DNA of 64,000 nucleotides, the filler included, from a bacterium (GTDB taxonomy: Bacteria > JAMORN01): the NCBI GenBank assembly GCA_027063545.1. It is 15 parts of 15 records of this genome, joined end to end, with 100 filler letters (N's around TTAATTAATTAA, not from the genome) between each part and the next. Parts side by side here need not be neighbours in the genome. Positions count along the whole stretch, not along the records: positions 13,617 to 31,759 come from JAMORN010000281.1; 14 more parts are not named here. One strand, given 5' to 3'. The position numbers and the translations under genes were made by a program. Of this stretch, positions 3,326-51,808 are shown piece after piece (positions within the stretch are counted from its first letter, which is position 1; the number at the start of each line of letters is the position of its first letter). A model generated the notes under the pieces. It searched no databases. It had not been told where the DNA came from and saw nothing but the letters and a program-made list of their open reading frames with translations.

Positions 3326-3425
3326 NNNNNNNNNNNNNNNNNNNNNNNNNNNNNNNNNNNNNNNNNNNNTTAATTAATTAANNNNNNNNNNNNNNNNNNN
3401 NNNNNNNNNNNNNNNNNNNNNNNNN
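3326..3425. other. Artificial contig-joining spacer (first of 14)
   Basis: N-run + TTAATTAATTAA (stops in all six frames) + N-run. Others at 6745-6844, 10137-10236, 13517-13616, 31760-31859, 35125-35224, 38469-38568, 41798-41897, 45113-45212, 48427-48526, 51709-51808, 54983-55082, 58239-58338, 61495-61594. Confidence 0.99.
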
Positions 3426-3909
3426 TAAAATCATTGCCTAAAACTATAATAGCGTCTGATAAGTGATAAGAATAATATGAATGTTCTGCAAATCGCTTTG
3501 GAGATATTAAAATTTTTTTTCTTTTGTATAATTGCTTTATTCTTCTTAACTCTGCATTATTTTGATAACAAAAGTGCGAGCCCGTCGCATAATATATATA
3601 TATTGTTTTAGAATTTTTATTTTTTACTGCATCCTCAAATAAAGGTCCCATCCCAAATATAACCGAATACTCAGAAAAATTAGGTTTTATAGGATAAAGA
3701 TAATGATATATGTCAACTACATAACCAAGTTCATCGAAAACTTCTGCTATTTTCAAAACTTCTTGCTCATTAGTGTGAAAAAAAGAAATTCCTTTACGAA
3801 AAGGATGAACAATATATGATATTAAAACTTTTTTCTTATATTTTCTCCTAAAAAGATTCTTTATTGGACGATGAAAAATTATAGTTTTTAAAGTCTTTAG
3901 TATCTTCAT
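3426..3909 (-). CDS. Glycosyltransferase (GT-B/GT4-like) N-terminal part, 3'-truncated
   Basis: Directly downstream of wzx; HTN..E..I..VF..LGY.VD and SDAIIVLGN pattern of polysaccharide GT N-domains. Confidence 0.65.
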
Positions 3910-5294
3910 TAAATTTTATACCTTAAAAACATTTTGGTTTTAAGTAACTTTACAACATATTCTATTATATCAAAAAAAAATATAACCCTTATTTTTAATT
4001 TAAATGTTTCATGCAAATCTTTGTCTATCAAATCATATATAATAGAGGACACAATCGTGGATACTAAAGTAGCTATAGCCGCTCCCCTAACACCGTAAGA
4101 TTTTATAAGGTAATAATTTAATATTAAATTTGTTAATAGAGCAAGTAAAGTACTATACATATTCTTTTTTTCCAAATGTTTTATGATTAACCATTTACTA
4201 TGTATCATACCAAAGGAAACAAATATAATATTAAATGACAAAATTTTTAAAATTTCACTTGCATTTATAAATTTATTTCCATAAATTATTTTAACAATTA
4301 TAGTTGCCCCAAAATTTAAAATTAAAACGCAGATTATGGAAAAAACATAAAAAAGATTATAAGTTATTTTGAAATATTTTTTGTATAAAAGATTTGATCG
4401 AGTTTTAAGCTTTATAAAAAAAGGAAACATAGAGTTTAATATAACAGTTGGTATAATATAAATCAATTCAACTATTTTAACAGCAGCTGAATATTCTCCT
4501 ATTATTTTCATATTATTTAATAAATTTTTTAACATAATCTGATCTAATCTGAAATATAAGCTTACCGCAAAAACTGATATCATTAAGGGGTATGAGTTTT
4601 TAAGAAAAAATTTTGCTAGGTTAAGATTTACTTCCCATTTATATATTTTATTTTCAGAATATTTGTTATATATAGTAATAGAAAAAAGTGCTAACAATAT
4701 ACCTTCCAAAGCGTACGAAAAAGCTATGAACTTCAAAGAAAATTTTTTTATAACAAAAATAAATCTAACTATATTGGAAAAAATCAAAGAAATGATATTA
4801 CCTATAAAGGATAATTTAGATATAACTTTGGCTTGAAAATAGAAATCTATTATATCGAAACTTCTAAAAAATAAACCTACTAATAATATAACTACAATAA
4901 TATATATATATCTATTAAGTGGATTTTTTTCAAAATAGTACAATAATGCAAATATTATTATTAATATAGTTGAAGTTACAAGTTTTAAGAGCAAAGCTGT
5001 TCCCAAAATTATTCTTTCTTTTTTTAAATTTTTATTTTTTACTAGTTCTCTAACTAAAATATTATCTATACCTAAATTTGCTATTGGAGTAACTAACATT
5101 ACTATGCTTTGAGCATAAGAAAGAATTCCAAAATTTTTAGGCCCTAAATATCGAGCTACCAAAACTCCAACAAAAAAACTTACTCCTAATCTTATAAATT
5201 TTTCACTAAATAACCAAAGAGTATTTTTAAAATATTTTTGAAATTCAGGATTATTCCACTTATTTTTTATGGAAATAAATAAAGAATTACTCAT
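3909..5294 (-). CDS. wzx: Polysaccharide flippase (Wzx, MOP superfamily)
   Basis: KYFKNTLWLFSEK, ARYLGP..FG, DQIML, YGVRGAAIATL; about 12 TM segments; likely ATG at 5294 overlapping the sat stop. Confidence 0.92.
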   Translation of the reverse strand: MSNSLFISIKNKWNNPEFQKYFKNTLWLFSEKFIRLGVSFFVGVLVARYLGPKNFGILSYAQSIVMLVTPIANLGIDNILVRELVKNKNLKKERIILGTALLLKLVTSTILIIIFALLYYFEKNPLNRYIYIIVVILLVGLFFRSFDIIDFYFQAKVISKLSFIGNIISLIFSNIVRFIFVIKKFSLKFIAFSYALEGILLALFSITIYNKYSENKIYKWEVNLNLAKFFLKNSYPLMISVFAVSLYFRLDQIMLKNLLNNMKIIGEYSAAVKIVELIYIIPTVILNSMFPFFIKLKTRSNLLYKKYFKITYNLFYVFSIICVLILNFGATIIVKIIYGNKFINASEILKILSFNIIFVSFGMIHSKWLIIKHLEKKNMYSTLLALLTNLILNYYLIKSYGVRGAAIATLVSTIVSSIIYDLIDKDLHETFKLKIRVIFFFDIIEYVVKLLKTKMFLRYKI

Positions 5295-8636: not shown

Positions 8637-10136
8637 CTACCATCCTCTATACATTTTTTTAGGTTTAATTTTATAAAAATACTCCTCTTGAGAAGTTAGA
8701 AAATTCTCCATTGTATAAAAAGGTAAAACTGTAAAATAAGGACCTTCTATATGATAATAACTTTTAAAATAATTTAAATCTACATTCTTGATAAGAGTAG
8801 CCTGAGCAACAACCTCATTCTTTCCCGCCTCTTTATTTATTTTATGTACAATATTTACATCCTTACTTACTATGGTATAAGCTCTTCTCTTTTCTGAACC
8901 TACATTTCCCATAATAAATTCTCCATAACCTGCACTTACATGAAATCCAACACCTAACATTTTTGAATACTCATTAGCTATTTTTAAAGCAACTCTTAAT
9001 GTTTCTTCAGGATCATCATGAGTAATAAATATTTCATCCCCCATAAAATTTTGAATATCTCCTCCTTTAGCAATTACAAAATCTATAATAGGTTGAAAAA
9101 TATAGTTTAAAAACTTAATTACCTCATTAGGACTTTTATACATTGTTAAAGAAGTAAATCCCATAATATCAACAAAAATAAACCCTGATAATTTCTTTAC
9201 TTCTGGTATCTCTAAAAAGTCTGTTCTAAAATCATCTATTTCTGTATTTTTGGAAAGATCCATAATAATTTTTGGTAAATAAAGTTGTAATGTTTTGGTT
9301 AAAATCTTTGCTTTTTTATTTTCCTCTTTAAGCCGTTTTGTTATATTATTTAATAAATAGTTTAATCTATTTTTATATGAAATAGCCTTTGAAATAGAAT
9401 TATATGCCGTAAAATATAACTTCAAAACACTAACATCTATTGTTTTAAAATCTGCATACTTCATATATTCTATATTGTCTTCTTCCAATGTCTTAAATAT
9501 AAGAAAGATAGAATTTTTCATTCCTTTTAATTTTAGCAGTATAAAGTAGATAACTATTGAAAAATTTATAATATTAATTATTACAACTGTCCTAAAATAA
9601 TCCCAACAATTAAAAAAATCACATTTTAATCTTCCACTTAGATATAGAAAAACAAAAAGAAAAGTTGTTATAAAAATTAATCCTAAAAAACTACCCAAAA
9701 GAATTCTCTGATTTCTAAAGGTATATTCTCCTTTAATATTTGTTCTTACATATTTAGAGCTTAATATAAAAGGTAATATTTCATGGTATTTTATTGCCAA
9801 TAAATAATCAGTTATTAAATATGAAGAAGTTATATTAAAAAAAATGAGAGGCACGCCTATTATAACAATTAAAAAATAGACATAATTTATATTTAAACCT
9901 AAAATATAATACTCTAATATAACAAAAAATGTAAAAAACAGTATATTAAATGCTACCTTTATTAAAAAGAAGTATTTATAAATTTTATTAATAAGGAATA
10001 TATAGTAATTAAAATAATGTCCTGATATATATAGAGATCGTCTGGTATTTAAAATCTTGTCTATAAAATAAAATTTTCTTATAACCTTATTCTTATTTTT
10101 AGAAAATAAATATAGAAAAATAAAAACTATTTCACA
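8637..10136 (-). CDS. Multi-TM class III nucleotidyl cyclase-like protein, 5'-truncated
   Basis: FVDIMGFT, FMGDE, GNVGSEKR, DVN motifs; several TM helices; frame open from the contig end at 10136. Confidence 0.8.
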   Translation of the reverse strand, partial: CEIVFIFLYLFSKNKNKVIRKFYFIDKILNTRRSLYISGHYFNYYIFLINKIYKYFFLIKVAFNILFFTFFVILEYYILGLNINYVYFLIVIIGVPLIFFNITSSYLITDYLLAIKYHEILPFILSSKYVRTNIKGEYTFRNQRILLGSFLGLIFITTFLFVFLYLSGRLKCDFFNCWDYFRTVVIINIINFSIVIYFILLKLKGMKNSIFLIFKTLEEDNIEYMKYADFKTIDVSVLKLYFTAYNSISKAISYKNRLNYLLNNITKRLKEENKKAKILTKTLQLYLPKIIMDLSKNTEIDDFRTDFLEIPEVKKLSGFIFVDIMGFTSLTMYKSPNEVIKFLNYIFQPIIDFVIAKGGDIQNFMGDEIFITHDDPEETLRVALKIANEYSKMLGVGFHVSAGYGEFIMGNVGSEKRRAYTIVSKDVNIVHKINKEAGKNEVVAQATLIKNVDLNYFKSYYHIEGPYFTVLPFYTMENFLTSQEEYFYKIKPKKMYRGW

Positions 10137-13486: not shown

Positions 13487-13616
13487 ATTTTTTTAAAATT
13501 TTTTTTTAAATCTTTGNNNNNNNNNNNNNNNNNNNNNNNNNNNNNNNNNNNNNNNNNNNNTTAATTAATTAANNNNNNNNNNNNNNNNNNNNNNNNNNNN
13601 NNNNNNNNNNNNNNNN

Positions 13617-14486
13617 TATAGACATCAAAAGTTTATTTTTTTCAAAAAAGTTTTTATCCTTTTGAAGTAGTTCTATAATCTTATATAGAATTGTTTTTAG
13701 ACTTTCTATTTTATCTTTATTTAGTAATGGTGTTATTATTTCCAAATCTTCAGATAATCCCTCAAAATTTTTTAAGATAGAATCCATTTCTGATAGATAT
13801 ATAAATTCCTCAATTCTATATAACTTATCAGGTAAAGAATTTTTTACTTCAACTCTTTTGTTTTCTTCAGCCTTTAATTTATCAAAATATCCTTCTTTTT
13901 TGAGTTTTTTCCATTCTTTTATGAGTTCATCTATTTCACTTTGTTTTAAAAGTATATATCCATAGGTGTCTATTACTTCTTTATATTTTATATCTTCCAA
14001 TGAGTCTTCAATTTTATCTAAAGTATCTGTGGATTTATCCTCTTCTGTTTCAATCCCATGCTCTTTTTTATAAAAATCTAAGTCAGCTTTAATTTCATAT
14101 AGAGAAAATAGAAGATCTTTATAATTTACTTCTCCTATATCAAGAATTACCTCTTCACCAGATATTTCCATGTTTTCTAATCCAGAAAGTAAATGCTGAC
14201 CCATTTCTTTAAGTATTTCTATAGCAGATAGTAAAAAAAATTTTATACTTTTAAAATCAGGGTATTCTATAATGGTTTCCACAGAATATTTTATTGCTTC
14301 TAAGAATTCATTAAACTCTTTTATTTCAAGCTGTGTTCCTTTATCATATATATCTGAAATAATTTGATAAACTATATCCCATTTTTCATCATCTATAATT
14401 CTTTGTAGTTTATCAAAATTATCCATTATTAAATCAATAGTTTGTGTTACTATTTCTATTTTTTCCTTTTTTATTTTTATTTTCAT
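13617..14486 (-). CDS. Hypothetical protein with two His-less Hpt/CheA-P1-like helical bundles, 3'-truncated
   Basis: Residues ~10-105 follow the P1 pattern (GTQLEIKEFNEFLEAIKYSVETII, FLLSAIEILKEM..L.SG); a second copy starts at FIYLSEMDSILKNFEGLSEDL; no HTLKG. ORF solid, domain call by eye. Confidence 0.45.
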
Positions 14487-14500
14487 ATTTTTGCCCTTTT

Positions 14501-15325
14501 TTATATTATTAATAAGGTTTTGTTTTTATAATTAATTTTTTCTTGTTTTATTATTATATTTTTGTAATAATTATAAAATAATAATAAATTTTTATTATTC
14601 AAATCTTTTTCCAGAAAAATATTAAAACCTTTTTCTTTAATCTTTGAAATAAAAATTAGGGTATCTTTTTCTAATTTATAATTTAAATTTAAATAAGCTT
14701 TTAAATTTAATTTTTCTTTTTTAAAAAATGTATTAATGTTAATTTCTGTTATAAGAAAACAGCTCTTATCATTACATATGTATATATCAAAAGATATATT
14801 ATCAATAGTTAATTTCTTTTTAGTTTTTATTACATTATTAGCTGGTATAGAATAAACTTTTTTTATCTTATTAATTTTAAAAACAACATTATTTTTAAAA
14901 GAGATTAAAAGCAACTCTTTTTTATTATTTAAAACAGCATCAATAAATCCTTTTTCTATAATTAAAGCAGTATTTTCCCTTTCTATTATCAAATATGTTT
15001 CTTTATATCTATTGATATTTGCCACTTTTATTTTCTTTTTTCTATATTTTGGAAATTTTTGAGATATATTTTGTGTATTAACTAGTTCTTTTTCATCTAT
15101 ACTTATACTTTTAGATATTTTGTTTGATATATTGTTAATTTGTCCAATATATCCAATTGTAGAATTATAATATATAAATATAACATTTCCTTTACTATCA
15201 GGATTAATAATTGGAATTATTTTATTATCATAAACAAATAAGGCATTATTTAAAGAGGTTAATATAGATTCATTTTTTATATCTTTAATTCTTAATATAT
15301 CTACAAGATTAAATTTTATTTTCAT
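14501..15325 (-). CDS. Hypothetical beta-rich protein with degenerate CheW-like repeats
   Basis: LFVYDNKIIPIINP...VIFIYYNSTIGYIGQINNI and YLIIERENTALIIEKGFIDAVL resemble CheW segments RGxIIPVIDL...GLLVDxV and YLxFxLxxExYAI. Confidence 0.35.
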   Translation of the reverse strand: MKIKFNLVDILRIKDIKNESILTSLNNALFVYDNKIIPIINPDSKGNVIFIYYNSTIGYIGQINNISNKISKSISIDEKELVNTQNISQKFPKYRKKKIKVANINRYKETYLIIERENTALIIEKGFIDAVLNNKKELLLISFKNNVVFKINKIKKVYSIPANNVIKTKKKLTIDNISFDIYICNDKSCFLITEININTFFKKEKLNLKAYLNLNYKLEKDTLIFISKIKEKGFNIFLEKDLNNKNLLLFYNYYKNIIIKQEKINYKNKTLLII

Positions 15326-15329
15326 AACT

Positions 15330-16349
15330 TTATACCTCTAATAATCTTTCTTCAATGTAGTTTATAATACCATTTTTTAGAGGCAGAAATAGATTTATAT
15401 TTGCATCTACAATATGAATTTGTGATATTATTTCTCTTAAATTCACATCAATTATAGACATTTCATTATTTAATGTATCTATATAGTTAGAGATTAATGT
15501 GGTTATATTTTTTACTTGATATAATATTCCTAAAATTCCTTTTTGCTGTTTTTTATTTTGAGATATAATATATGAAAGTACAATGGTTATATTACTTAAT
15601 TTTATAGTTTCATGTTGTAGGATATCAATCTCATATTTAATTGTAGATATATAATTTGATAATGTATTTATTTTTAATTTTAAATTAGAGAATTCAGAGG
15701 ATAAATCTTTAATTTTATTTAATTCTTTGGATAATTCTTTTAAATATTCTTTAACTTTTTCTTTTAATTCTTCAAATATTTTTGCCATATTTTTTTCTTT
15801 TAGTTCATCTTTTGATGTTTTAGTATTGTTGTAAAATATTTCTATTTCTTTGATAATTATATTTATATCAGAAATCATAAATTCTAATTTATCATTAGGT
15901 TCTATTTTAAATTTTAGATTTTCTTTTAGTTTTTGTTTAATATTATCAATCTTTTTGATAGAGTTGTTTAATTTTTCTATAGAATCTAATATTTCCTTTT
16001 CAAATATTAATATAGCCTCAATATTTTCGGCATCTTCTACAGATAGATTTAAATTAAGTTTTAGGACATCTATAGATTCTTCAAACTCGGTTTTTGATAA
16101 ATCGGAAAAGTAAAAATCATTTATTTCATCTAAGCTTTGAGATAGATTGTAAAGAATCATAGAACTATTTAAGTAAAATAGATTTAAAGATTCTAAAGAA
16201 TTTTTTAAAGAGTTTAATACAGAAATAGGAGAGTAGTTTTTATTATCTTTTTCTTGCGAAAATGGAACTATATTATCTGTTTCTACAATTTCAATTTTTA
16301 TATTTTCTACTTCTTTTATTTTTTCTTGATTATTTATTTTTTTTGCCAT
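15330..16349 (-). CDS. Soluble coiled-coil protein with degenerate MCP signalling-hairpin-like segment
   Basis: Heptad-rich with no TM; IDILQHETIKLSNITIV...QKGILGILYQVKNIT parallels IxxIAEQTNLLALNAAI...GKGFAVVADEVRKLA; AGGAG RBS at 16357-16361. Confidence 0.4.
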   Translation of the reverse strand: MAKKINNQEKIKEVENIKIEIVETDNIVPFSQEKDNKNYSPISVLNSLKNSLESLNLFYLNSSMILYNLSQSLDEINDFYFSDLSKTEFEESIDVLKLNLNLSVEDAENIEAILIFEKEILDSIEKLNNSIKKIDNIKQKLKENLKFKIEPNDKLEFMISDINIIIKEIEIFYNNTKTSKDELKEKNMAKIFEELKEKVKEYLKELSKELNKIKDLSSEFSNLKLKINTLSNYISTIKYEIDILQHETIKLSNITIVLSYIISQNKKQQKGILGILYQVKNITTLISNYIDTLNNEMSIIDVNLREIISQIHIVDANINLFLPLKNGIINYIEERLLEV

Positions 16350-16364
16350 TTTTTATCTCCTTTT

Positions 16365-17522
16365 TTATTCTATTATATAGTCAGATTTTTTAATTTTTAT
16401 ATTTTTTTTATCACTTCCTATAAAAATCTTGGCTTCTACGTCTAGGCTATTTTTAAAATATATGTCTAATATTATGTTTTCTTTATTTTCTTTATGAATT
16501 GTAGTTTTCAATAAAGAATATATTTCTTGGCTTATATCTATTATAGCAAATTCTATATCTATTTTTTCGTCATTTACTTTTTCTATTTTTAGAGTTATCC
16601 TATTTTTTGTTAACTTATTTCTAGGATATTCTAGAATTTTTCTATTATTTAAAAATAACACAAAATTGAAATAATACAAATTGTTTTTTATAAAATCTTC
16701 AAATAGAGAATATTTAGGTTTTCTTAATGTTTTTAGAATAATATTGTAATTCTCAATAGTTGAAGGGATAAAGCCTATAAGAGAAAAAATATTTTTCTTA
16801 TTAAAATCACGAATCTCATTGAAAGTTTCTAGAATAATTTCAGTTATATTTATAGAAATGAAATCAAGATTATCTGATGTCGGTATGGCTATTATTTTAG
16901 ATGTTTTTTTATCAAAAAGACTATTTTCATGTAAAGAGATAAAATTATGAAATAGATATTTAAATAAAATTTTTTTAATTCTATCTTTAGATGTTAGATT
17001 TTTTTCTATTTTTTTTACAATCAACTTTTCTATTTTATCAATTATATTGATATTTTTTAGTTCTTTATTAGTGTATAAATAGATTGTTTTTCCTATACCA
17101 TCGTAAATATCAATTTTATCTATCTTTAGTTTTGATTTAGCAATGAATTCGATAAAGTCATAAAGATTAAAAATATATATATTTTTAAGAAAATTTAACT
17201 CTTTTAATATTTTTAATAAATTAGAAATAGCATTTAAAGGTATAGGTTTTAATCCTATATAAATAATATCTTTTTCATTTTTAATATAATTTTCTTTTAT
17301 ATTAAGAAAAATAGATCTAACAATACTTAATCCATCAATGGTTATATTTCTTTTTGTTATTTTTTCTTTTAGAAGAAGATAATTTATGTCTATTTCATTT
17401 TTTTCTAAGAATTCTAAAAAGAATCTTTCTTTACTATTAAAGATACTATGTATGTCTATTATTTCAAATTTATCCTTTTTACAAAGATAAATATTATTGA
17501 AATAAAACCATATATATATCAT
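16365..17522 (-). CDS. Hypothetical protein with degenerate Hsp70/DnaK-like architecture (NBD + SBD-beta)
   Basis: Colinear echoes of DnaK: IDIYDGIGKTI (VYDLGGGTF), FSLIGFIPST (ILVGGSTRIP), YPRNKL (IPRNTT), IILDIYFKNSLDVEAKIFIG (IEVTFDIDANGILHVSAKD). Confidence 0.45.
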   Translation of the reverse strand: MIYIWFYFNNIYLCKKDKFEIIDIHSIFNSKERFFLEFLEKNEIDINYLLLKEKITKRNITIDGLSIVRSIFLNIKENYIKNEKDIIYIGLKPIPLNAISNLLKILKELNFLKNIYIFNLYDFIEFIAKSKLKIDKIDIYDGIGKTIYLYTNKELKNINIIDKIEKLIVKKIEKNLTSKDRIKKILFKYLFHNFISLHENSLFDKKTSKIIAIPTSDNLDFISINITEIILETFNEIRDFNKKNIFSLIGFIPSTIENYNIILKTLRKPKYSLFEDFIKNNLYYFNFVLFLNNRKILEYPRNKLTKNRITLKIEKVNDEKIDIEFAIIDISQEIYSLLKTTIHKENKENIILDIYFKNSLDVEAKIFIGSDKKNIKIKKSDYIIE

Positions 17523-17531
17523 CTCAACTTC

Positions 17532-18308
17532 CTATTTTTTATGTTTTATTAATATCGCTAACACAACTCTTGTATAATCAAAATTTCCCAAAGAGTTTTT
17601 TTTATATTCATCTATTAATTTCCCAAAATTTGGGGCTTCAGCTAATGCTACATTATTTCTTATTGGAGGAAGTATTTTATCTTCACCAAAACTCTTTTTT
17701 AATTTTTCAAGGAAAAATTTTCCTATATTTGTTCTATGATTAAAAAATGTCGGAAGAATACCTAAAATTTCTATATCAGGATTATACTCTGTTTTTATTT
17801 CATATATAAAATCAACAACTTCTTCTACACCATTTATTGATAGAAAATTTGTTAGTGTTGGAATAATAACCTCTTTTGAAGCAACTAAAGAAAGAGTTGT
17901 TAAGAATTCTAAAGATGGGGGAGTATCTATAAAAATAAAATCAAAATTATCTATAAAATAGGAATATATAAGTTGTTTTAAAGCATAGGGATTGAAAGAG
18001 TTTGGGGTTAAATTCTTTTCATATTCTTCTAAAAATTTACCCCCACCTGTTATATACAGATATTCATTTTTTTTGAAAATTATACTATCAGAATATTTAT
18101 TAATATCAGTTAATGATTTAACAAATAAAGGAGATACATTATTTTTTGTTATTCCCAAGTGAAGTAAGGCATGTCCCTGAGGATCCATATCTATTATTAG
18201 AGTTTTATATTTCTTTTTAGAAATGAGTCCAGCAATATTTACACATGATGTAGTTTTACCACAGCCACCCTTTTTATTTGTTAAAGCAATTATCCTAATT
18301 TTTTTCAT
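17532..18308 (-). CDS. parA: ParA/Soj family ATPase
   Basis: Deviant Walker A KKGGCGKTT, IDMDPQG, Walker B IFIDTPPSL, IRNNVALAEAP. Confidence 0.95.
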   Translation of the reverse strand: MKKIRIIALTNKKGGCGKTTSCVNIAGLISKKKYKTLIIDMDPQGHALLHLGITKNNVSPLFVKSLTDINKYSDSIIFKKNEYLYITGGGKFLEEYEKNLTPNSFNPYALKQLIYSYFIDNFDFIFIDTPPSLEFLTTLSLVASKEVIIPTLTNFLSINGVEEVVDFIYEIKTEYNPDIEILGILPTFFNHRTNIGKFFLEKLKKSFGEDKILPPIRNNVALAEAPNFGKLIDEYKKNSLGNFDYTRVVLAILIKHKK

Positions 18309-18427
18309 ACTTTATCCTTTGTTTTTAATTTTCTTTTCTGCAATTTATATGCCAGATTTATATAATAGATTTTACTGAACAAATTTTTTATTTTATTATA
18401 TATAATTTTATAAAATTTTTCTACTAA

Positions 18428-18501
18428 GGCCCCATAGCTCAGGTGGATAGAGCGACGCCCTCCTAAGGCGTAGGTCGCAGGTTCAAATCCTGCTGGGGCT
18501 A
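18428..18501 (+). tRNA. tRNA-Arg(CCT); CCA not encoded
   Basis: Acceptor GGCCCCA/TGGGGCT, D arm GCTC..GAGC, anticodon arm ACGCC-CTCCTAA-GGCGT, T arm GCAGG-TTCAAAT-CCTGC. Confidence 0.96.
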
Positions 18502-19433
18502 TTTTTTTTATATAAATGAGGATTTTCAAGAAAATATAGTATTTCTAAAGAAAATATAAGAGTCATTGAAACGTAATATATCCAGGATAATATGATTATA
18601 ATAGAAGAGAGCGATCCATATACTAAGTTTAGATTTGTTATTTTTGTTATATATATAGCGTAAAGAAATTTAGCTATAGACCATAAAGTAAAGAATATTG
18701 TAGCAGCAATAAGTTGGTTTATTATTTTTACTTTTATATTTAAAAAGAATTTTATAGTAAGAATATAAAATATGAGAAAAATAGAAAATGATATATAATT
18801 TATATTAGAAAGAGTAGATATAATAAAATTAGATAATGGTAAAGTTTTTTTTAAAAATATAAATAGTTTATTTATATAAACAGATGAGTATATAAGGTTA
18901 GTAAATGTAAGATGTAAAATTTCAAATATGAAATTAGAGATAAAAATAACAAGTATTATTGAAATAACAAAAAGTGAGCTTAATAGTTGAACTTTAATTA
19001 AATGTCTATTAGGGAGATTAAATACTTTTCTATAAATTGTTTGAAGCATATTAAATATTACTCCACTAATAAACGGAAGAAAAAGTAGATTAATTAAAGT
19101 AAAGGATGTTGAAAGAGTATGGTTTATTAAATTTTTTTCTATCCACTCTTTAGTTAAAAAAGGGACAACTTCAGATAAGTTATTTATGATTAAATTAATT
19201 GTATTAGATGAACTATGTAAAAAAAGTTTAAATAGTATATTTAATACTATTATACTAAAAGTAGTAAATGGAATTATAGAAAGTAGAAAGTAATAAGATA
19301 TTGATGCAGAATAAGAAAAACCGCTATCATTTATAAATTTTAAAATAGAGTTATAAATAAGTAGGAAAGTGTTTGATAAGAAATTATACAATTTTCTTTT
19401 TATAAGAATTAATATTTTTATTTTTTTATTCAT
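18483..19433 (-). CDS. YihY / virulence factor BrkB family membrane protein
   Basis: F..D.G...SASISYYFLLSIIP and VYGSLSSIIIILSWIY motifs; likely ATG at 19433. Confidence 0.88.
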   Translation of the reverse strand: MNKKIKILILIKRKLYNFLSNTFLLIYNSILKFINDSGFSYSASISYYFLLSIIPFTTFSIIVLNILFKLFLHSSSNTINLIINNLSEVVPFLTKEWIEKNLINHTLSTSFTLINLLFLPFISGVIFNMLQTIYRKVFNLPNRHLIKVQLLSSLFVISIILVIFISNFIFEILHLTFTNLIYSSVYINKLFIFLKKTLPLSNFIISTLSNINYISFSIFLIFYILTIKFFLNIKVKIINQLIAATIFFTLWSIAKFLYAIYITKITNLNLVYGSLSSIIIILSWIYYVSMTLIFSLEILYFLENPHLYKKNSPSRI

Positions 19434-19516
19434 AAACCTTAACTTTAATAATAAAATTATTGTTAATTTCCAAAATAAAATAATATTTTTCAATAAAAAA
19501 TAACAAGAAAGATAAT

Positions 19517-22685: not shown

Positions 22686-22851
22686 GTAATTATAAAAGTA
22701 TCAAAGTTTTTAGCATTTTCTTTTTTGATTTTTATCTCCCTTACTTTTGCAAAAGTAGGGCTTTTTTTTATTTTCTCTTTTCTATATAAAAAATTAAATT
22801 TTGAAATATTATAAAAAAAAATTATTTTATGGGTATATTGGGAGAGTGTTG

Positions 22852-24183
22852 ATGGAAGTAATAATCAAAAAGAATAATTTTAAAGGTGGTGTTCATCCGC
22901 CGGAATATAAGTATTTTACAGAACATAAATCTATAGAAAATTTTCCATTACCAGAAAAAGTATATCTTTTACTTCAACAACATATAGGAGCTCCTGCAAA
23001 GCCAATTGTTAAAGTTGGAGATAAAGTAAGAACAGGAGAGTTAATAGCAGAAGCCTCTGGTTTTATTTCAGCAAATATTCATGCTTCTATATCTGGAGAA
23101 GTAACAGGATTTAAAGAATTTATCGTACCATTTGGGGCAAAGGTTCAGGCTATAGAAATAACATCAGATGGGGAAGACAATTGGGTTGAATTAGATAAAA
23201 GAGAATGGCAAAGATTATCTCCTAAAGAAATTATAGAATTAGTGAAAGAGAAAGGTATTGTAGGAATGGGAGGAGCAACGTTCCCAACACATGTTAAACT
23301 CTCTCCTCCTCCAGAAAAAAAGATAGATACTTTAATTATAAATGGTGTAGAATGTGAGCCTTATTTAACAGCAGACCATAGATTAATGCTTGAAGAAGCT
23401 GATAAAATAATAGATGGTATAAAAATTTTAATGTATGTATTGGGAGTGGATAAGGCTTATATAGGTGTAGAAGCAAATAAGATGGATGCAATTGAACATT
23501 TAATAGAAAAAACAGCAAACGATCCTATAGAAGTTGTTGCTCTTGAGGTCAAATACCCTCAAGGAGCTGAAAAACAACTTATATATGCAATAACCAAGAG
23601 AGAAGTTCCTTCAGGAGGTCTCCCAGCAGATGTTGGCGTTGTAGTTCAAAATGTTGCTACAGCCAAAGCGATTTATGATGCGGTTGTTGAGGATATACCT
23701 TTGATTGAAAGAATAACAACAGTAACAGGATCTATTGTAAAAAATCCAACAAATTATAGAATAAGAGTAGGGACGTTAATATCTTCAATTTTGGATACTG
23801 TAGGGGTTGAATATGAAAATATTGCTAAATTAATTATGGGTGGCCCTATGATGGGGTTAACCCTTTATACTGATAACTTTCCTCTTCTTAAGGCAAATAA
23901 TGGAATATTAGTTTTATCTAAGGATGAGGTAAAAAGAGAAGAAGAGTATCCTTGTATTTCATGTGGAAGATGTGTTGATGTATGTCCTATGAATTTACTT
24001 CCAACTATGATAGCGTCAAGTTATAGGAAAAAGGAAATAAAATTAGCAGAAAAATTAGGAGCATTGGATTGTATTGAATGTGGTTCATGTTCATATATTT
24101 GCCCAGCTAAAATTCCATTGGCTCAACAGATAAAATTAGCTAAAAAGAGAATAATAACTCTTAAGAAAAAGGCTAAATCTTAG
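22852..24183 (+). CDS. rnfC: Rnf complex subunit C
   Basis: FKGGVHP, QHIGAPA, GMGGATFPTHVK, ECEPYLTAD, two CxxCxxCxxxCP; ATG at 22852 with GGAG upstream. Confidence 0.96.
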   Translation: MEVIIKKNNFKGGVHPPEYKYFTEHKSIENFPLPEKVYLLLQQHIGAPAKPIVKVGDKVRTGELIAEASGFISANIHASISGEVTGFKEFIVPFGAKVQAIEITSDGEDNWVELDKREWQRLSPKEIIELVKEKGIVGMGGATFPTHVKLSPPPEKKIDTLIINGVECEPYLTADHRLMLEEADKIIDGIKILMYVLGVDKAYIGVEANKMDAIEHLIEKTANDPIEVVALEVKYPQGAEKQLIYAITKREVPSGGLPADVGVVVQNVATAKAIYDAVVEDIPLIERITTVTGSIVKNPTNYRIRVGTLISSILDTVGVEYENIAKLIMGGPMMGLTLYTDNFPLLKANNGILVLSKDEVKREEEYPCISCGRCVDVCPMNLLPTMIASSYRKKEIKLAEKLGALDCIECGSCSYICPAKIPLAQQIKLAKKRIITLKKKAKS

Positions 24184-24194
24184 GAGAAAATAAA

Positions 24195-25199
24195 ATGGGT
24201 GTAGGTAAATTGGTAGTAGGTCCAGGGCCTCATATTAGAGATAGAGATGATGTTAAGACTATAATGTGGTGGGTTGTAATTTCTCTTATGCCAGCTTTAA
24301 TAGCAAGTGTTTTATTTTGGGGGATAAGACCCCTTATTATGACATTAATAAGTGTTGTAGTTGCTGTAGGTAGTGAATATTTGTTTTCAAAGCTTTTTAA
24401 TTTGCCTATTAGAATAGATGATGGATCAGCAGTTATAACAGGAATATTATTAGCTTTTAATGTAACTCCAAATGCTCCATGGTGGATTTTTGCTGTAGGT
24501 TCTTTTTTTGCTATTGTTTTTGGTAAGATGGTTTTTGGCGGATTAGGATACAATCCTGTGAATCCTGCTTTAGCAGGTAGAGCATTTTTAATGGCTTCTT
24601 GGCCAGTTATAATGACAGCTGACTGGATCCCAGCAAATTTTTTATTTAAAGGTCCTATGGGAGGTATAGATGGCTTTACTTCAGCAACTCCTTTGAATGT
24701 GTATAAATATAATCAATTAACAATAGATCAATTAAAAGAGGCTTTAATGCCTTTATTTATAGGGAATGTTGGAGGAGTTTTAGGAGAAACATCTGCTATA
24801 GCTCTTTTAATTGGGGCAGCTATACTATTTTATAAAAAGATAATCTCTTGGAGAATTCCTTTTACTTATATAGGAACAGTTTTTATTTTAGCATGGATAT
24901 TTCAAAAAAGTGGGGCTCAATTTACAAAAGACTTTTGGGTTGAGCCTATGTTTCATGTATTAGCTGGAGGATTAATTTTAGGGGCATTTTTTATGGCAAC
25001 CGATATGGTTACATCTCCAATAACACCAAAAGGACAAATTATTTTTGGTGTAGGGTTAGGGGTTTTAACTTATTTAATAAGAAGATTAGGAGGTTATCCA
25101 GAAGGAGTGTCTTATTCTATTCTTTTAATGAATTTGACTGTACCATTTTTAAATAAACTAACAATACCTAGAATATTTGGCCATAAGGATAAAAAATAG
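24195..25199 (+). CDS. rnfD: Rnf complex subunit D
   Basis: FGGLGYNPVNPAL, TSATPL FMN site, GETSA, FMATD. Confidence 0.96.
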   Translation: MGVGKLVVGPGPHIRDRDDVKTIMWWVVISLMPALIASVLFWGIRPLIMTLISVVVAVGSEYLFSKLFNLPIRIDDGSAVITGILLAFNVTPNAPWWIFAVGSFFAIVFGKMVFGGLGYNPVNPALAGRAFLMASWPVIMTADWIPANFLFKGPMGGIDGFTSATPLNVYKYNQLTIDQLKEALMPLFIGNVGGVLGETSAIALLIGAAILFYKKIISWRIPFTYIGTVFILAWIFQKSGAQFTKDFWVEPMFHVLAGGLILGAFFMATDMVTSPITPKGQIIFGVGLGVLTYLIRRLGGYPEGVSYSILLMNLTVPFLNKLTIPRIFGHKDKK

Positions 25200-25215
25200 A
25201 GAGGCGGGGAATTTT

Positions 25216-25872
25216 ATGAATAAAGAAATGTTGAATAATATATTAAAATTCTCTTTAGTTTTAGTGATAGTTGGTATGGTTGCCGGAGGTAGTTTATCTT
25301 TTGTTTATTTAAAAACAAAATCAAAGATAGAAGAACAACAAAAGAAGGAAGAATTGGCGGCTAAGAATGTAATTTTTAAAGATAAAGGGTATGTTTTTAA
25401 AAAAATAAAAAAAGAAGGAATTGAATATGAAGAAGTATATAAAAATGGGAAATTAGAAGGATATTTATTTAAAGCGTATGGCCCAGGATATTCATCAGTA
25501 ATTGTTACTTTAGTAGGTGTTGATACAAATTTTAATATAAAGGGAATTGTTATTTTATCACAGGCAGAAACCCCGGGTCTTGGAGCAAGAATAAAAGAGG
25601 TTAAAAGTGATAAATATATTTTTAACTTTTGGAAAAAGAAAAGTGAAAACACAAAACCTTGGTTTGAAGAGCAATTTGAAGGGCTTAATGCTTTAAGTTT
25701 AAAGTTAATTAAGGGTGGAAAAGAATATAAAGATTTGGATGATAAAGCAAAAGAAAAGTTAAAAAAGAAAAATGAGATAACTGCTTTATCAGGAGCTACA
25801 ATATCTTCAAATGCAGTATTAAGTAGTATTAAAGCTAAGGCTGATAGTTTGTATAAAATTTTGAAAAAGTAG
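25216..25872 (+). CDS. rnfG: Rnf complex subunit G
   Basis: N-terminal TM, ETPGLG, SGATISS FMN-Thr motif; likely ATG at 25216. Confidence 0.93.
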   Translation: MNKEMLNNILKFSLVLVIVGMVAGGSLSFVYLKTKSKIEEQQKKEELAAKNVIFKDKGYVFKKIKKEGIEYEEVYKNGKLEGYLFKAYGPGYSSVIVTLVGVDTNFNIKGIVILSQAETPGLGARIKEVKSDKYIFNFWKKKSENTKPWFEEQFEGLNALSLKLIKGGKEYKDLDDKAKEKLKKKNEITALSGATISSNAVLSSIKAKADSLYKILKK

Positions 25873-25883
25873 AGGAATATACC

Positions 25884-26477
25884 ATGGCAAAGATAAAAGA
25901 GTTAATAAAAGATGGTATTTGGAATAAAAATCCTGTTTTAGTTCAAGCAATAGGTCTTTGTCCAACATTAGCGGTAACAACATCCTTAAAAAATGGTTTT
26001 TATATGGGTGTAGCCTCTACTTTTGTTTTAGTAGGATCAAATGTTATAATCTCAATAATAAAATCTTTTATTCCTGCAAAGGTTAGAATACCAGTATATA
26101 TAACAGTAATAGCCTCATTTGTAACATTAGTGCAACTTTTTGTATCTGCATATTTACCAGAACTTAATAAGACACTGGGGATTTTTATACCATTAATTGT
26201 TGTAAATTGTATAATTTTAGGGAGAGCTGAGGCTTTTGCTTCAAAAAATGGAGTTTTTGATTCTTTGATAGATGGAGTTTCTATGGGTATAGGTTTTACA
26301 TTAGCACTTATGATAATGGCAGGTATAAGAGAATTTTTAGGTGCAAATAAACTATTTGACTTACTTGTAATACCGGGTTTTGAGCCTGCTGCAGCAATGA
26401 TATTACCTGTTGGTGGATTTTTAACAATGGGTGTTCTTATTGCTATAATGAATTATATAAATATGAAAAAGAGGTAG
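25884..26477 (+). CDS. rnfE: Rnf complex subunit E
   Basis: NPVLV..IGLCPTLAVT, IPLIVVNCIILGRAEAFA. Confidence 0.96.
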   Translation: MAKIKELIKDGIWNKNPVLVQAIGLCPTLAVTTSLKNGFYMGVASTFVLVGSNVIISIIKSFIPAKVRIPVYITVIASFVTLVQLFVSAYLPELNKTLGIFIPLIVVNCIILGRAEAFASKNGVFDSLIDGVSMGIGFTLALMIMAGIREFLGANKLFDLLVIPGFEPAAAMILPVGGFLTMGVLIAIMNYINMKKR

Positions 26478-26482
26478 ATTAA

Positions 26483-27067
26483 ATGGATTTGGGAACACTT
26501 CTTCAAATAACAATAGCGGCAATTTTTATAAATAATTTTGTTTTATCAAGATTTTTGGGATTATGTCCTTATTTTGGAGTTTCTAAACAGGTTGATAGTG
26601 CAATAGGGATGGGGCTTTCTGTAATATTTGTAATGACAATAGCAGCAACAGTTACATGGCCTATCTATTATTTTGTTTTAAAGCCTTTGGGAATAGATTT
26701 TCTTCAGACAATAGTTTTTATTTTAGTTATAGCTTCTTTAGTTCAATTGGTGGAGATGGTAATCCAAAAGGTTTCTCCTTCTTTATATGAATCATTAGGA
26801 ATTTATCTTCCTCTTATAACAACAAATTGTGCTATATTGGGAGTGACTGTTTTAAATATAAGTGAGAGTTATAATTTTATAGAATCTGTAGTTAATGCCT
26901 TTGCTTCAGGTGTTGGTTTTACACTTGTTTTAATATTAATGTCAGGTATAAGAGTTAAATTAGAAGATACCCCATTACCAGAGTATATGAAGGGGCTACC
27001 GCTTGCTTTTTTTGTAGGAGCAGTAATGGCTTTAGCATTTATGGGATTTTCAGGTTTTAAGATTTAA
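26483..27067 (+). CDS. rnfA: Rnf complex subunit A
   Basis: NNFVLSRFLGLCP, LPLITTNCAILG. Confidence 0.96.
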   Translation: MDLGTLLQITIAAIFINNFVLSRFLGLCPYFGVSKQVDSAIGMGLSVIFVMTIAATVTWPIYYFVLKPLGIDFLQTIVFILVIASLVQLVEMVIQKVSPSLYESLGIYLPLITTNCAILGVTVLNISESYNFIESVVNAFASGVGFTLVLILMSGIRVKLEDTPLPEYMKGLPLAFFVGAVMALAFMGFSGFKI

Positions 27068-27089
27068 AAAAAACAAGGTAGGGTAAATT

Positions 27090-27374
27090 ATGAATATAAT
27101 AGTATTATATTCAATTTTAACTTTAGCCATAATGGGACTAATAATAGGAATATTATTAGGTATAGCTAGTGAAATTTTTAAAGTTGAAGTTGATCCTAGA
27201 GTAGAAAATATAGAAGAAATTCTTCCAGGTTTAAATTGTGGAGCTTGTGGTTATCCTGGATGTTCAGGGTATGCAAAGGCTATAGTAAAAGGAGAAGCAC
27301 CTATAAGTTTATGTACGCCTGGTGGTCCAGATGTTCAAGAAAAAATACAAAAAATAATGGAGGAAAATTCTTAA
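27090..27374 (+). CDS. rnfB: Rnf subunit B, N-terminal membrane anchor and FeS domain only
   Basis: TM helix, VDPR, LPGLNCGACGYPGC..YA, CTPGG; stop after 94 aa. Confidence 0.88.
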   Translation: MNIIVLYSILTLAIMGLIIGILLGIASEIFKVEVDPRVENIEEILPGLNCGACGYPGCSGYAKAIVKGEAPISLCTPGGPDVQEKIQKIMEENS

Positions 27375-27375
27375 T

Positions 27376-28125
27376 ATGGCAAGTAAAAAAGTTGCTATAG
27401 TAAAGTGTGTCGGTGATAGAAGAGTAGCAAAAGAAAAATATGAATATTTAGGATATGAAAGTTGTGAAGCAGCTGTAATGCATTTTAATGGTCCAAAGGA
27501 ATGTTATTTTGGATGTATAGGTTTGGGAGATTGTGTAGAAGCTTGTCCTTTTGATGCTATGTATATGAGTGAATTTGCTTTACCTGTTGTTATTGAGGAT
27601 AAATGTATAGGTTGTGGAGAATGTGTAAAGGCATGTCCCAAGGGAATAATGGAGTTAATAGATAGGGATCAAAAAGTGTATGTCAAATGTTCTTCTCATG
27701 AACCAGCGAAGGTAACAAATCAGGTATGTAATAATGGGAAAAAAGGGGATGAAAAACTAGGTGGGTGTATTGCTTGTGGATTGTGTGAGAAAAATTGTCC
27801 TCACGATGCTATACATGTTATAGACAATCTTGCAGTTATTGATTATGAAAAATGTACTTCCTGTGGAATATGTGTGCAGAAATGTCCTACAAATGTAATA
27901 ATAGATATGCTTCCTTCAAGACCAAAGGCTTATATTGGGCCTAATTGTGTTGGATGTGGTTTGTGTAAGAAGGTTTGTCCAACAAATGCTATAAGTGGAG
28001 AACTAAAGGAAAAACATGTTGTCGATCCAGATAAATGTATTGGTTGTGGGGAATGTATTGAAGCATGTCCTCCTAAGATAAAGGCTATATCTTTCATTGG
28101 AAGCTACGATGAAATAGATAAATAA
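27376..28125 (+). CDS. Polyferredoxin corresponding to the RnfB C-terminal portion
   Basis: KKVAIVKC, CYFGCIGLGDCVEACPF and further CxxCxxCxxxCP motifs; starts 1 nt after the short rnfB stop. Confidence 0.88.
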   Translation: MASKKVAIVKCVGDRRVAKEKYEYLGYESCEAAVMHFNGPKECYFGCIGLGDCVEACPFDAMYMSEFALPVVIEDKCIGCGECVKACPKGIMELIDRDQKVYVKCSSHEPAKVTNQVCNNGKKGDEKLGGCIACGLCEKNCPHDAIHVIDNLAVIDYEKCTSCGICVQKCPTNVIIDMLPSRPKAYIGPNCVGCGLCKKVCPTNAISGELKEKHVVDPDKCIGCGECIEACPPKIKAISFIGSYDEIDK

Positions 28126-28253: not shown

Positions 28254-31200
28254 ATGAACATAAATAAAAGTATGTTTAGTTTTTATACTAATATTTCTTC
28301 TTTTATACTAATATTTCTTTTAAATTTAAATGTCTTCTTAAATGCGCAAACAGTACCTTTTCATGATAGACTTCATTATGATTCTTTGAATTTAGTTCCT
28401 AATAATATTAGGGTAAATCAAGTAGGGTATTTGCCTGATGATAGGGGTAAACGTGCTTTTGTAACTGCTTATGGAGATTATCAACCAAAAGAAGGGGATC
28501 CTTTTTATATTATTGATGCTTATACAAAAGAGGTGGTTTATGAGGGAAAACTTAAAGATTCGGGATATGATTTTTTTAGAGGTTCGTGGTATATTCAGGC
28601 TTATTATAATTCAATAACAGCTTGGGATCCACCTTATCCTTTAGTTGCTAATTATGGAGATGAACATATTTATTATGCAGAGTTTGGAGATTTTACTCAA
28701 GAAGGAACATTCCAGATTGTATGTAATGGAGATACCTCTTGGACTTTTAGAATAAGTAAATACTTATTTAATGATTTATTAAATACAGAACTTAAATTTT
28801 TAGCATTTCAAAGATGTGGTCCTGATCCTTCATGGGCGCATGGCCCTTGTCATACCCATGATGGGGATTATTTGGGAGAAGAGTTTGATGGTGCTTTAGT
28901 TGGCGGTTGGCATGACTGTGGAGATCATCCTAAATTTGCCTTAACTTTAAGTTATACAGCTTTTATGCTTTCGGTTTTATCTGCAGTTTTTGAGGATAAA
29001 TTAAATGATCAATATAATGCAGCAATGAATGATACAATATTTACAGATGGTATTCCAGATTTAATGTATGAGGCTTATAGAGGGACACAGTATATATTAA
29101 GACTTCTTGAGGTTTCAAAAAAGAAAGGAATTTGGCCTGATGATATGTACCATACAGTAGGAGATGGAGATTATGATCATTCATGGTGGGGAAGGCCAGA
29201 ATGGCAGGATCAAGTACCTCAAAGTCAAGGTGGAAGGCCAAGACCAGTAGTAGCAGGTGCAGGGGCTGAGGTTGCAGCAAAGTTCGGTGCAGCTCTTGCT
29301 TTCTTTGGAGGTGTTTGGAAAAAATATGATCCAGAATATGCCCAGAAATGTATTGATGCAGCAGAGGAACTTTATGAATATGCTAAAAATCATTTAAGTT
29401 CTCAAACAACTCATGGAGCTTACTATAGAAGTAATGGTAGATTTGATGATGAAATGGCAGCAATCACAGTAGGACTTTTATATGCAACAGGAGATGAGAA
29501 GTATAAATATGATCTATTAGAAAATACAGATTATGGTCGTGCTACTAGTTATGAGTGGAATGCTTATCTTTTTCCTGGGGGTTGGCTTGCTATGAATGGA
29601 GATGGAGGCTTTTATCCGGGAGGTTGGGTTCAAGATTGGGAAAATATCTATGCAATGGTTTTATATGCTTTTAAAAAGTTAATTCTTCCAGATATTGAAA
29701 CAGCAAGAAAATATAATTTTACAGATGATGAATACAATAATTATTCTGTAAGAATAGCTTATGCATACTTAAAAAATCTTCAAGATGGGGGATTAATTGC
29801 TGATTATAGTGATCCTACAGCAGGTGCCACTACAATGGCTGAACCTTATAATTTACCTACATTTTCTATGGATTGGGGATTTAATAGATATAATTTAGGT
29901 ATATCTATTGCTGGTTTTTTCTTTATTGATGCTTTTGAAGGACAGACATTTGCGGTTGTAGAAGACTTACAAAATACAAATGAATGTAGAGGTAAAACAG
30001 AAATAGATTTTAATGATTGGGCATGGTTAAGGAATTTTGCAGTAAGACATCTTGATTATATTTTAGGATTAAATCCATGGGATGTCTCTTTTGTTATGGG
30101 TGTTGGGACAAAAAATTTAAATCATCCTCATAATAGGACAGCCTCTGCTGAACTTTTAAATAATGCAGCTGAACCTTATGATTATACTCCACCTGTAGGA
30201 GCATTGATGGGTGGTGTAAATCCTTCAAGTACTAATGTATTGAAAGAGGATGCTCAGGATTATACAGTTGATGAAACATGTGTTGATTATTCTATGGTAC
30301 TTCTTGGAATGACATTAACTCATGCAGTAAAACTTCCACCAGATACAATACCTCCAGGTATTAAAAATTTAAGATATACTCAAGTATCAGAAAATACAGA
30401 ACTTATTTCATGGGAAACAACAGAATTATCAAAAGATACTCTATTCTTAGCAGCATCAAAAGAAATTTTAGAAGCCTATTTAAATGGAAATACAGCAGCA
30501 GGAGAATTTGTTTATAAGTTAGTTTCAAAAAAGGATGAAAATGCTATTAGTGACTTTCAATTTAACCATTTAGTTGAGGCAACACCCCTTGATATAGGTG
30601 TGACTTATTATTTTTATATAAAAGCGTATGATGTTAAAGGAAATGTTTTGGTAGATGATAATAACGGTCAATTTTATTCTTTTACTTTGACAGAATTTAC
30701 AGGAGTAGAAATATCTGATGTTACAGTTTGTAATATAACAGCCCATTCAGCAACAGTTTTATGGATGACAAATGTACCAGCGGATTCTAAAGTAAGATAT
30801 GGGACATCACCAGGTGTTTATACAGATTCTATTCTTTTTGATGATATAACAATACCAACAACATTTCATAGGGTAACACTTGAGAATTTACAGGCAAATA
30901 CAACCTATTATTTTGAGGTAATAAGTGGAGATGCTAAAGCAACAGGTACTTTTACTACAGAGTTTGAGTATGCAAATATTCAGGTTTTGGGTGCTTTTAC
31001 ATCTTCTAATGTTTTGTGGCTTAAGATTGTAAATAAAGAAAATTTAACTAAATACGCAGGTCTAGAAGTTAGAGTTTATTTAGATAAAGTAACCTCAACA
31101 AGTACAACAGCAAATATATGGTTAAGTGAATTGTGGACAGGGGATAATTTAACGTCTCCTAGTGGTTCTTTAACTTTTGATTATTTAGGATTAAAAACAG

Positions 31201-31759: not shown

Positions 31760-31860
31760 NNNNNNNNNNNNNNNNNNNNNNNNNNNNNNNNNNNNNNNNN
31801 NNNTTAATTAATTAANNNNNNNNNNNNNNNNNNNNNNNNNNNNNNNNNNNNNNNNNNNNA

Positions 31861-51708: not shown

Positions 51709-51808
51709 NNNNNNNNNNNNNNNNNNNNNNNNNNNNNNNNNNNNNNNNNNNNTTAATTAATTAANNNNNNNNNNNNNNNNNNNNNNNNNNNNNNNNNNNN
51801 NNNNNNNN

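Follow-up and report, generated by a model that had tools for sequence, protein, structure and literature searches.

Positions 13617-18308 of the 64,000-nucleotide (nt) stretch of bacterial DNA analyzed here (the window; assembly GCA_027063545.1, lineage JAMORN01, filler included) carry an operon of five minus-strand open reading frames (ORFs) led by a ParA-type ATPase. The ATPase is canonical and stands without a partition partner; the second gene product probably adopts an actin/Hsp70-type fold, and the fourth may hold a CheW-like domain. We tentatively read the operon as a lineage-specific chromosomal module in which ParA positions a cargo and the actin/Hsp70-fold protein is a scaffold, an interpretation to which we give somewhat less than an even chance. 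That such a module would be tied to chemoreceptor arrays, in the manner of ParC-ParP or PpfA-TlpT, we consider considerably less probable than that.

All five are real genes, tightly packed into one operon. In order from the first gene they encode ParA (17532-18308), ORF2 (16365-17522), ORF3 (15330-16349), ORF4 (14501-15325) and ORF5 (13617-14486), with 258, 385, 339, 274 and at least 290 codons, respectively, and intergenic gaps of 9, 15, 4 and 14 nt. A G-containing, purine-rich site resembling a Shine-Dalgarno sequence (AGGA, AGGAAG, AGGAG, GAGG, AGGG) lies 5-10 nt before each ATG. A preliminary description, made from the sequence alone, had reported this shared orientation, spacing and set of putative ribosome-binding sites, along with only four G+C in 14521-14580; ORF coordinates, upstream sites and a recount (exactly four, in a region of 20.4% G+C over 13617-18308) confirm these observations. 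When the region was shuffled 300 times, open frames reached at most 144 codons, and the longest per shuffle had a mean of 81. Stop codons would arise from 5.8% of the single substitutions possible across the five frames; under a uniform substitution model, the probability that all five stay open is 0.065 at 1% neutral divergence and 0.004 at 2%. We conclude that the frames are open through selection, or else are very young.

The best promoter-like match upstream of ParA, also the top row of the scan, lies at 18395..18423 on the minus strand (TAGAAA, 17 nt, TATAAT; 10 of 12 matches) and is a plausible ParA promoter, in a scan that as a whole was not enriched (50 sites versus 54.6 in shuffles); no terminator-like site was found in the corresponding scan. 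An AT-rich palindrome at 18381-18420, with 26-nt arms that are 81% complementary, overlaps this match, and could be an operator or merely AT-rich sequence. None of the five proteins has a membrane segment (maximal 19-residue hydropathy at most 1.27, versus 2.25-3.0 for the RnfD, BrkB and methyl-accepting chemotaxis protein (MCP) of the window), and all are predicted to be soluble and cytoplasmic. Assembly proteins of the PilM-PilN-PilO type, in which the actin-like protein is followed by single-pass membrane partners, were rejected on the same ground, no hydrophobic segment being found in any of the five.

ParA is a deviant Walker A ATPase without N-terminal extension. It matches Pfam AAA_31 at 1.2e-39 (136.5 bits, cut-off 27), CbiA at 75.5 bits (cut-off 25.4) and the PHROGs family phrog_164, a ParA-like partition protein, at 5.4e-45. 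Residues 13-19 read KGGCGKT and match, signature lysine included, the pattern KGGxxK[ST], given in one account as the deviant Walker A motif of ParA/MinD ATPases (PMC9178275). When the protein was aligned with seven relatives of 29-38% identity, K13, G14, G15, G17, K18, D40, D42 and D128 were invariant. The sequence thus predicts a canonical ParA with ATP-binding motifs intact, and the AAA_31 score and invariant Walker residues bear out the same claim in the preliminary description. The gene that follows gives no match to ParB or to a DNA-binding domain in Pfam or NCBIfam, and no repeat array was found near ParA, so we class it as an orphan ParA. A canonical ParABS system was rejected on these two counts and on the score against NCBIfam ParA_partition (79.6 bits, under the cut-off of 180). 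A bacterial tyrosine kinase was likewise rejected (TIGR01007, 35.6 bits versus a cut-off of 108).

ORF2, a soluble, basic protein (isoelectric point (pI) 9.3), probably has an actin/Hsp70 (ASKHA) fold of nucleotide-binding-domain size that lacks the sequence signature of the family. Its ESM Atlas model has a predicted template modeling (TM) score, or pTM, of 0.74 and is structurally closest to HSP70 clusters (TM 0.61-0.65 by query, 365-366 residues aligned); feature matches in the same resource, at 0.92-0.94, are mostly to Hsp70-family clusters. These neighbors are non-chaperone Hsp70-like clusters of 448-600 residues rather than classical DnaK, and one of them is half viral. A single-sequence AlphaFold2 (AF2) model was poor (predicted local distance difference test score (pLDDT) 49.1) and begins strand-strand-strand-helix. 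Foldseek with this weak model placed actin, Arp2/3, Hsp70/Hsp110/DnaK, MreB or crenactin in 34 of the 46 listed rows; 11 others were unrelated and one uncertain, and none of the 46 reached E<=0.001. The Hsp70 fold first proposed by eye for this protein is accordingly backed by the ESM Atlas (TM 0.65), and weakly by the low-confidence AF2 model and its Foldseek rows.

Sequence methods detect none of this. ORF2 has no match at E<=1 in Pfam, NCBIfam, PADLOC or PHROGs. For direct comparisons we built profile hidden Markov models (HMMs) from 30 MCPsignal, 11 CheW, 19 histidine phosphotransfer (Hpt) and 8 HSP70 stretches of five genomes and ran them unfiltered on every ORF, with 500 shuffled versions of each for comparison; hhalign was also applied, and gave less than 6% for every ORF-family pair. 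The HSP70 profile (PF00012) is unmatched by ORF2 in Pfam, in our unfiltered HMM and by hhalign (0.0%). The ASKHA fold has two lobes, built by duplication of an RNase-H-like half, and similarity between the N-terminal and C-terminal halves of ORF2 is marginal (13 of 200 shuffles as high). ATP binding in the Hsp70/actin fold needs glycine-rich phosphate-binding loops. Only six of the 385 residues of ORF2 are glycine, among them G142 and G144 between two predicted strands, and the first hairpin, read by eye in the absence of a reliable alignment, contains neither Gly nor Asp; with so few glycines, the protein may not bind ATP.

ORF4 is a basic (pI 9.7), beta-rich protein lacking histidine, in which isoleucine, lysine and asparagine (I+K+N) make up 48% of residues. 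As a lead only, it may hold a CheW-like domain at about residues 95-274: its two best ESM Atlas feature matches are CheW clusters (0.87 and 0.85), and that segment superimposes on a CheW structure with TM 0.38, from a model of pTM 0.34. The CheW fold consists of two small beta-barrels. An AF2 model without alignment failed (pLDDT 33.6), and Foldseek on it returned generic beta-rich noise (probabilities at most 0.16; CheW/CheA in 0 of 45 rows) that is uninformative on function. No match at E<=1 was found in Pfam (CheW, PF01584, included), NCBIfam, PADLOC or PHROGs. Of the tandem CheW domains proposed in the preliminary description, CheW itself survives as this weak ESM lead; the tandem arrangement is not significant (internal repeat marginal, 4 of 200 shuffles as high) and the profiles are negative.

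These features can be joined in a provisional mechanism. ATP-bound ParA dimers would occupy a surface (probably that of the nucleoid); ORF5 or ORF3, each with a lysine-rich N-terminus, would be the partner that triggers ATP hydrolysis by ParA; and a cytoplasmic assembly of the remaining proteins would be kept positioned and shared between daughter cells. ORF2 and ORF3 would form a possible scaffold, and ORF4 could be a ParP-like adaptor, possibly linking the assembly to chemoreceptor arrays. AT-driven drift would have removed the detectable sequence relatives of the four partner proteins. The orphan ParAs PpfA and ParC position chemoreceptor clusters, ParC together with ParP (PMC9178275); TlpT, whose N-terminus is lysine-rich, has been suggested to activate PpfA, and McdB likewise bears a positively charged N-terminal activating peptide (both bioRxiv 10.1101/2020.12.14.422651). 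Residues 2-13 of ORF5 contain five K+R (5 Lys), more than in any of the 42 other ORFs of the window, and those of ORF3 contain four (4 Lys), a count reached by only 4 of 42. ORF3 is a candidate adaptor or ParA activator.

Several considerations weigh against the cargo-positioning interpretation. Every interaction within the module is one that we infer, and N-termini rich in lysine come easily to a proteome that has 31-48% I+K+N. The CheW lead for ORF4 falls under the bar of the tool itself (145 shared features versus about 170 expected); our CheW HMM scores the protein at -1.2 bits, with 412 of 500 shuffles as high, and hhalign gives at most 0.6%. No che genes are visible on the 18 kb contig. 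Support from conservation is absent, no relative of the operon having been found, and ParA-led orphan, fast-evolving genes also fit conflict systems.

Among large protein collections, which were interrogated with ORF2 and ORF5, ORF2 retrieved only itself from 8000 scored candidates and from 1,835,955,588 representative proteins searched exhaustively; none of 3251 candidates among proteins of 159-508 residues was related to ORF5, nor any of 6447 among those of 509-2000 residues, the latter being weak evidence by the rating of the tool itself. Searches of Protein Data Bank sequences with the partner proteins gave nothing below E 0.03. ORF2 was unmatched in seven genomes of one phylum, and ORF4 had three matches in 301 genomes of another (E 6e-5 to 7e-3, two with internal stops), about the number expected by chance. 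A ParA scan of genome contigs yielded 11 loci, none close. With our HMMs, one of these (L007) showed two MCP frames about 5.5 kb from its ParA and on the opposite strand. In another (L011, from a Clostridia metagenome-assembled genome), we observed an Hsp70/MreB-like frame at 3507-4553 on the plus strand, scoring 56 bits against our HSP70 HMM and lying 3.4 kb from a partial ParA match; it is probably an unrelated MreB. Using RmlA, a neighbor of the operon, as anchor, the best 80 of 586 confirmed metagenome loci were retained (876,243 nt; identities up to 61%), and tblastn with the five operon proteins over these 80 gave no match at E<=0.1. No related operon was found around the 11 ParA loci, the best 80 of 586 RmlA loci, the seven genomes (by ORF2) or the 301 genomes (by ORF4). 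UvrC of the organism is 29-37% identical to that of all 10 genomes compared. In the literature, supplementary files lying outside the search, no description was found of an operon of ParA-like, CheW-like and Hsp70-like proteins. A complex model of ParA (with alignment), ORF4 and ORF3 gave ipSAE scores of 0.00 and 0.00, which speak neither for nor against binding. Three further long ORFs of the window, at 49145-51760 (plus strand, 871 residues), 46666-48306 (plus, 546) and 8637-9854 (minus, 405), have no Pfam match at 1e-5; orphans may therefore be common here, and the silence of the ParA operon less special.

Four of the five proteins lack detected relatives, a frequent trait of fast-evolving conflict genes, which raises the alternative of an anti-phage or anti-plasmid conflict module, or one for maintenance of a mobile element, in which ParA and the Hsp70-like NTPase would be switches or multimerizing effectors and the orphan partners fast-evolving sensors. 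Twenty-eight ParA-centered conflict systems are reported in a recent survey (Li, Burroughs and Aravind 2026, bioRxiv 10.64898/2026.10.19.760177), which also indicates that HSP70-like NTPase domains can serve as a switch in comparable systems; the non-chaperone, in one cluster half viral, neighbors of ORF2 and a tRNA-Arg(CCT) gene at 18428-18501, 119 nt upstream of ParA, are compatible with such a role. PADLOC nevertheless gives nothing above noise for any of the five proteins (ParA, E 0.04; ORF3, LmuB at 0.002; ORF2, ORF4 and ORF5, no match), Pfam and NCBIfam reveal no recognizable effector domain, and, of the systems in the same survey, PCTM, APE and HINPO do not match the gene set. The operon also sits 5' of the tRNA gene, 3' being the usual position, and the contig contains neither integrase nor tRNA-derived direct repeat. 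G+C at third codon positions (GC3) is 0.09-0.14 in the operon genes and 0.11-0.17 in their neighbors, housekeeping genes among them; because the values are alike, codon usage appears native. The low G+C of the operon stems instead from codon positions 1 and 2, with I+K+N reaching 40-48% in ORF2-4, which indicates native genes under weak constraint on composition and not a recent import. A tRNA-linked island was rejected on the grounds of repeat, integrase and GC3. Overall we regard a conflict or maintenance function as unlikely, though it is the chief rival of the cargo-positioning reading.

The preliminary description had offered a different synthesis, a chemosensory-derived lattice placed by ParA and working without phosphorelay, in which a degenerate soluble MCP, tandem CheW domains and His-less P1 bundles join an Hsp70-like subunit in a structural landmark. 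Such a lattice would descend from the core of the chemoreceptor array, with phosphorelay lost and a degenerate Hsp70-type nucleotide-binding-domain subunit gained, and would be an undescribed kind of structural organelle or landmark. The leading ParA gene, the Hsp70-like fold of ORF2 and the CheW lead for ORF4 agree with it, as do, more weakly, the marginal MCP HMM score and BLASTP match of ORF3 given below, and there is precedent for a CheA divided between a kinase and a separate His-domain protein (PMC6829392). The components assigned to ORF3 and ORF5 find little echo in the data. ORF3 is acidic (pI 5.0) and partly helical or coiled-coil, and its only profile matches are weak and of coiled-coil type (SMC, 18.9 bits versus a cut-off of 729; LmuB of PADLOC, E 0.002). 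It has no Pfam match at E<=1, MCPsignal (PF00015) included. Its score against our MCP HMM, 2.9 bits, is marginal, being equaled or bettered by 12 of 500 shuffles; hhalign gives 0.2%, and BLASTP against the MCP of the window gives 27 bits, with a tip-region alignment at E 0.15. An MCP signaling domain forms one long, unbroken antiparallel hairpin of coiled coil; in a crude scan of hydrophobic periodicity, 35% of windows along ORF3 and 57% along ORF5 were helix-periodic, versus 82% for the real MCP.

That MCP, encoded on another contig at 38609-39889 (plus strand), is canonical, with HAMP and MCPsignal domains (5e-37, Pfam), and served as a control: our MCP HMM scores it at 125 bits and hhalign at 99.9%. 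Its contig probably belongs to the genome of the operon, GC3 being alike, and the organism accordingly probably has chemoreceptor arrays and is probably chemotactic. Since a canonical MCP is so readily detected in the window, AT-richness alone does not explain the silence of ORF3-5, and the absence of MCPsignal, CheW and Hpt signal counts against a lattice of these proteins.

ORF5 is acidic (pI 4.7) and largely helical. It has no match to Hpt (PF01627), or to any Pfam family, at E<=1, and its only rows at that limit in NCBIfam, PADLOC and PHROGs, three from PHROGs, have E 0.04-0.11. In Hpt domains the second helix bears the phospho-accepting His. Our Hpt HMM scores it at -0.9 bits, with 380 of 500 shuffles as high; hhalign gives at most 5.9%, with a different helix aligned, and its internal tandem repeat, like that of ORF4, is not significant (21 of 200 shuffles as high). 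The tandem P1/Hpt bundles once ascribed to it thus lack support, and the epithet "His-less" does not literally hold, as His98 and His143 are present. Because ORF5 is cut at the contig end, a loss of catalytic motifs throughout the operon is not claimable. Of the four folds originally guessed by eye, then, that of ORF2 is supported, that of ORF4 is a lead, and those of ORF3 and ORF5 are unsupported; we judge the lattice improbable.

The truncation of ORF5 admits one further chemosensory reading, a divergent but working pathway in which ORF5 would be the N-terminus of a CheA-like kinase whose dimerization, ATPase and CheW-like domains lie past the contig end. The ORF as called (13569-14486) runs into filler, its real part, 13617-14486, being 290 codons without a stop; a contig from another sequencing run extends 129 nt past 13617, and canonical MCPs are probably present in the organism. 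The lack of Hpt signal in ORF5, the failure to find relatives among the 6447 longer candidates (weak evidence, as noted) and the ease with which the real MCP is recognized, which should apply to a working CheW and MCP as well, leave this pathway a slim chance. That the frames are non-functional remnants, or were mis-called in AT-rich DNA of low complexity, as the I+K+N content of ORF2-4 and the lack of relatives might suggest, is very improbable given frames of 258-385 codons against a shuffle maximum of 144, the P of 0.004 at 2% neutral divergence, a Shine-Dalgarno-like site ahead of every start, the pTM of 0.74 for ORF2 and the recovery of identical sequence in contigs of three runs.

These three runs, labelled hydrothermal vent metagenome, contain 0.99, 0.73 and 0.45 of the sampled words, the first being a possible source of the assembly; no RNA run was among those listed as containing the sequence. 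Their contigs are identical to the operon sequence with no variant letter; many joints and loose ends at 85% likeness in the run contigs look like AT-rich cross-matches. The window itself is composed of about 15 contigs, mostly of 3.2-3.4 kb, artificially chained by N runs around TTAATTAATTAA, of which there are 14 copies versus 0.38 expected (near 3370, 6789, 10181, 13561, 31804 and onward to 61539), and adjacency across these points is artificial. The contig of the operon extends from 13617 to about 31760 (18,143 nt). Position 13617 is an assembly break and no biological boundary; being a contig edge, it cuts the 3' end of ORF5, and the operon may extend further. The N run, TTAATTAATTAA and N run at 13517..13616 constitute an artificial join, not genomic, so the TetR, TolC and HlyD genes to its left are no true neighbors of the operon.

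The true upstream neighbors on the contig are the tRNA-Arg(CCT) gene, a BrkB-family membrane protein, RmlA, a Wza-like exporter, six Rnf-type genes and a cellulase of glycoside hydrolase family 9 (GH9). A 74-residue ORF at 18305-18529 on the minus strand, which covers the tRNA gene, is spurious, and the BrkB-family frame (18483-19493, minus strand) overlaps the tRNA gene by 19 nt at its 3' end, on the opposite strand. The Rnf-type genes (22801-28125, plus strand) encode an RnfC-like protein, RnfD, an FMN_bind protein, two Rnf-Nqr membrane subunits and a poly-ferredoxin; G+C at their codon positions 1 and 2 is clearly higher than in the ParA operon, at equal GC3. The GH9 cellulase (28254-31811, plus strand) is a 1185-residue frame that includes CelD_N and fn3-like parts; a GH5 cellulase lies at 57072-58085 on the minus strand; the two enzymes are notable in an organism of 25% G+C from runs labelled hydrothermal vent metagenome.

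Orphan ParA ATPases serve generally as positioning engines, for cargoes that are mostly unknown, and an operon in which such an ATPase is joined by an actin/Hsp70-fold protein and possibly a CheW-like adaptor would, if the assignments are true, represent a new cargo type; a chemosensory link, if true, would mean that array proteins had been reused as pure structure. The case also illustrates how AT-driven drift may erase sequence signal while language-model folds still give leads. As a single cut locus, from an uncultured vent bacterium represented by a fragmentary metagenome bin, it carries limited weight.

Among known systems, comparison begins with ParC-ParP. ParP is laid out as an N-terminal region followed by a C-terminal CheW-like domain. 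In Vibrio and Pseudomonas, a ParA-like ATPase and this CheW-like adaptor localize chemotaxis arrays (PMC9178275, PMC5706961). The operon resembles this pair in encoding a ParA-type ATPase with ORF4, in which a possible C-terminal CheW-like domain follows an N-terminal region of about 95 residues; it differs in that the CheW assignment is only a lead, in that the visible 18 kb contain no cheA, cheY or cheW, and in that ParC-ParP has no counterpart to the actin/Hsp70-fold and coiled-coil proteins. It resembles PpfA-TlpT of Rhodobacter sphaeroides, where PpfA partitions the cytoplasmic chemoreceptor cluster, in that an orphan ParA precedes soluble proteins that are partly helical and lysine-rich at the N-terminus, whereas TlpT is a true MCP and ORF3 has no MCPsignal match, and functional Che proteins are encoded in the PpfA operon. 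On a similar principle, PomXYZ of Myxococcus and McdAB of cyanobacteria pair a ParA/MinD ATPase with non-homologous scaffold or activator proteins, the scaffold being coiled-coil or self-assembling and the activating peptide N-terminal and positively charged; they have no sequence relation to the operon, and the accounts consulted describe no ASKHA-fold subunit for them.

Non-chaperone Hsp70-like proteins offer the remaining parallel, the nearest ESM clusters of ORF2 being Hsp70-family proteins of 448-600 residues, although ORF2 fails the HSP70 profile, comprises 385 residues without a substrate-binding domain and has six glycines. One Hsp70-like protein, StkA of Myxococcus, reportedly acts with the Dif chemosensory proteins. 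Set beside these systems, the operon is an orphan ParA variant on the known theme of ParA plus cargo, with partners invisible to sequence methods.

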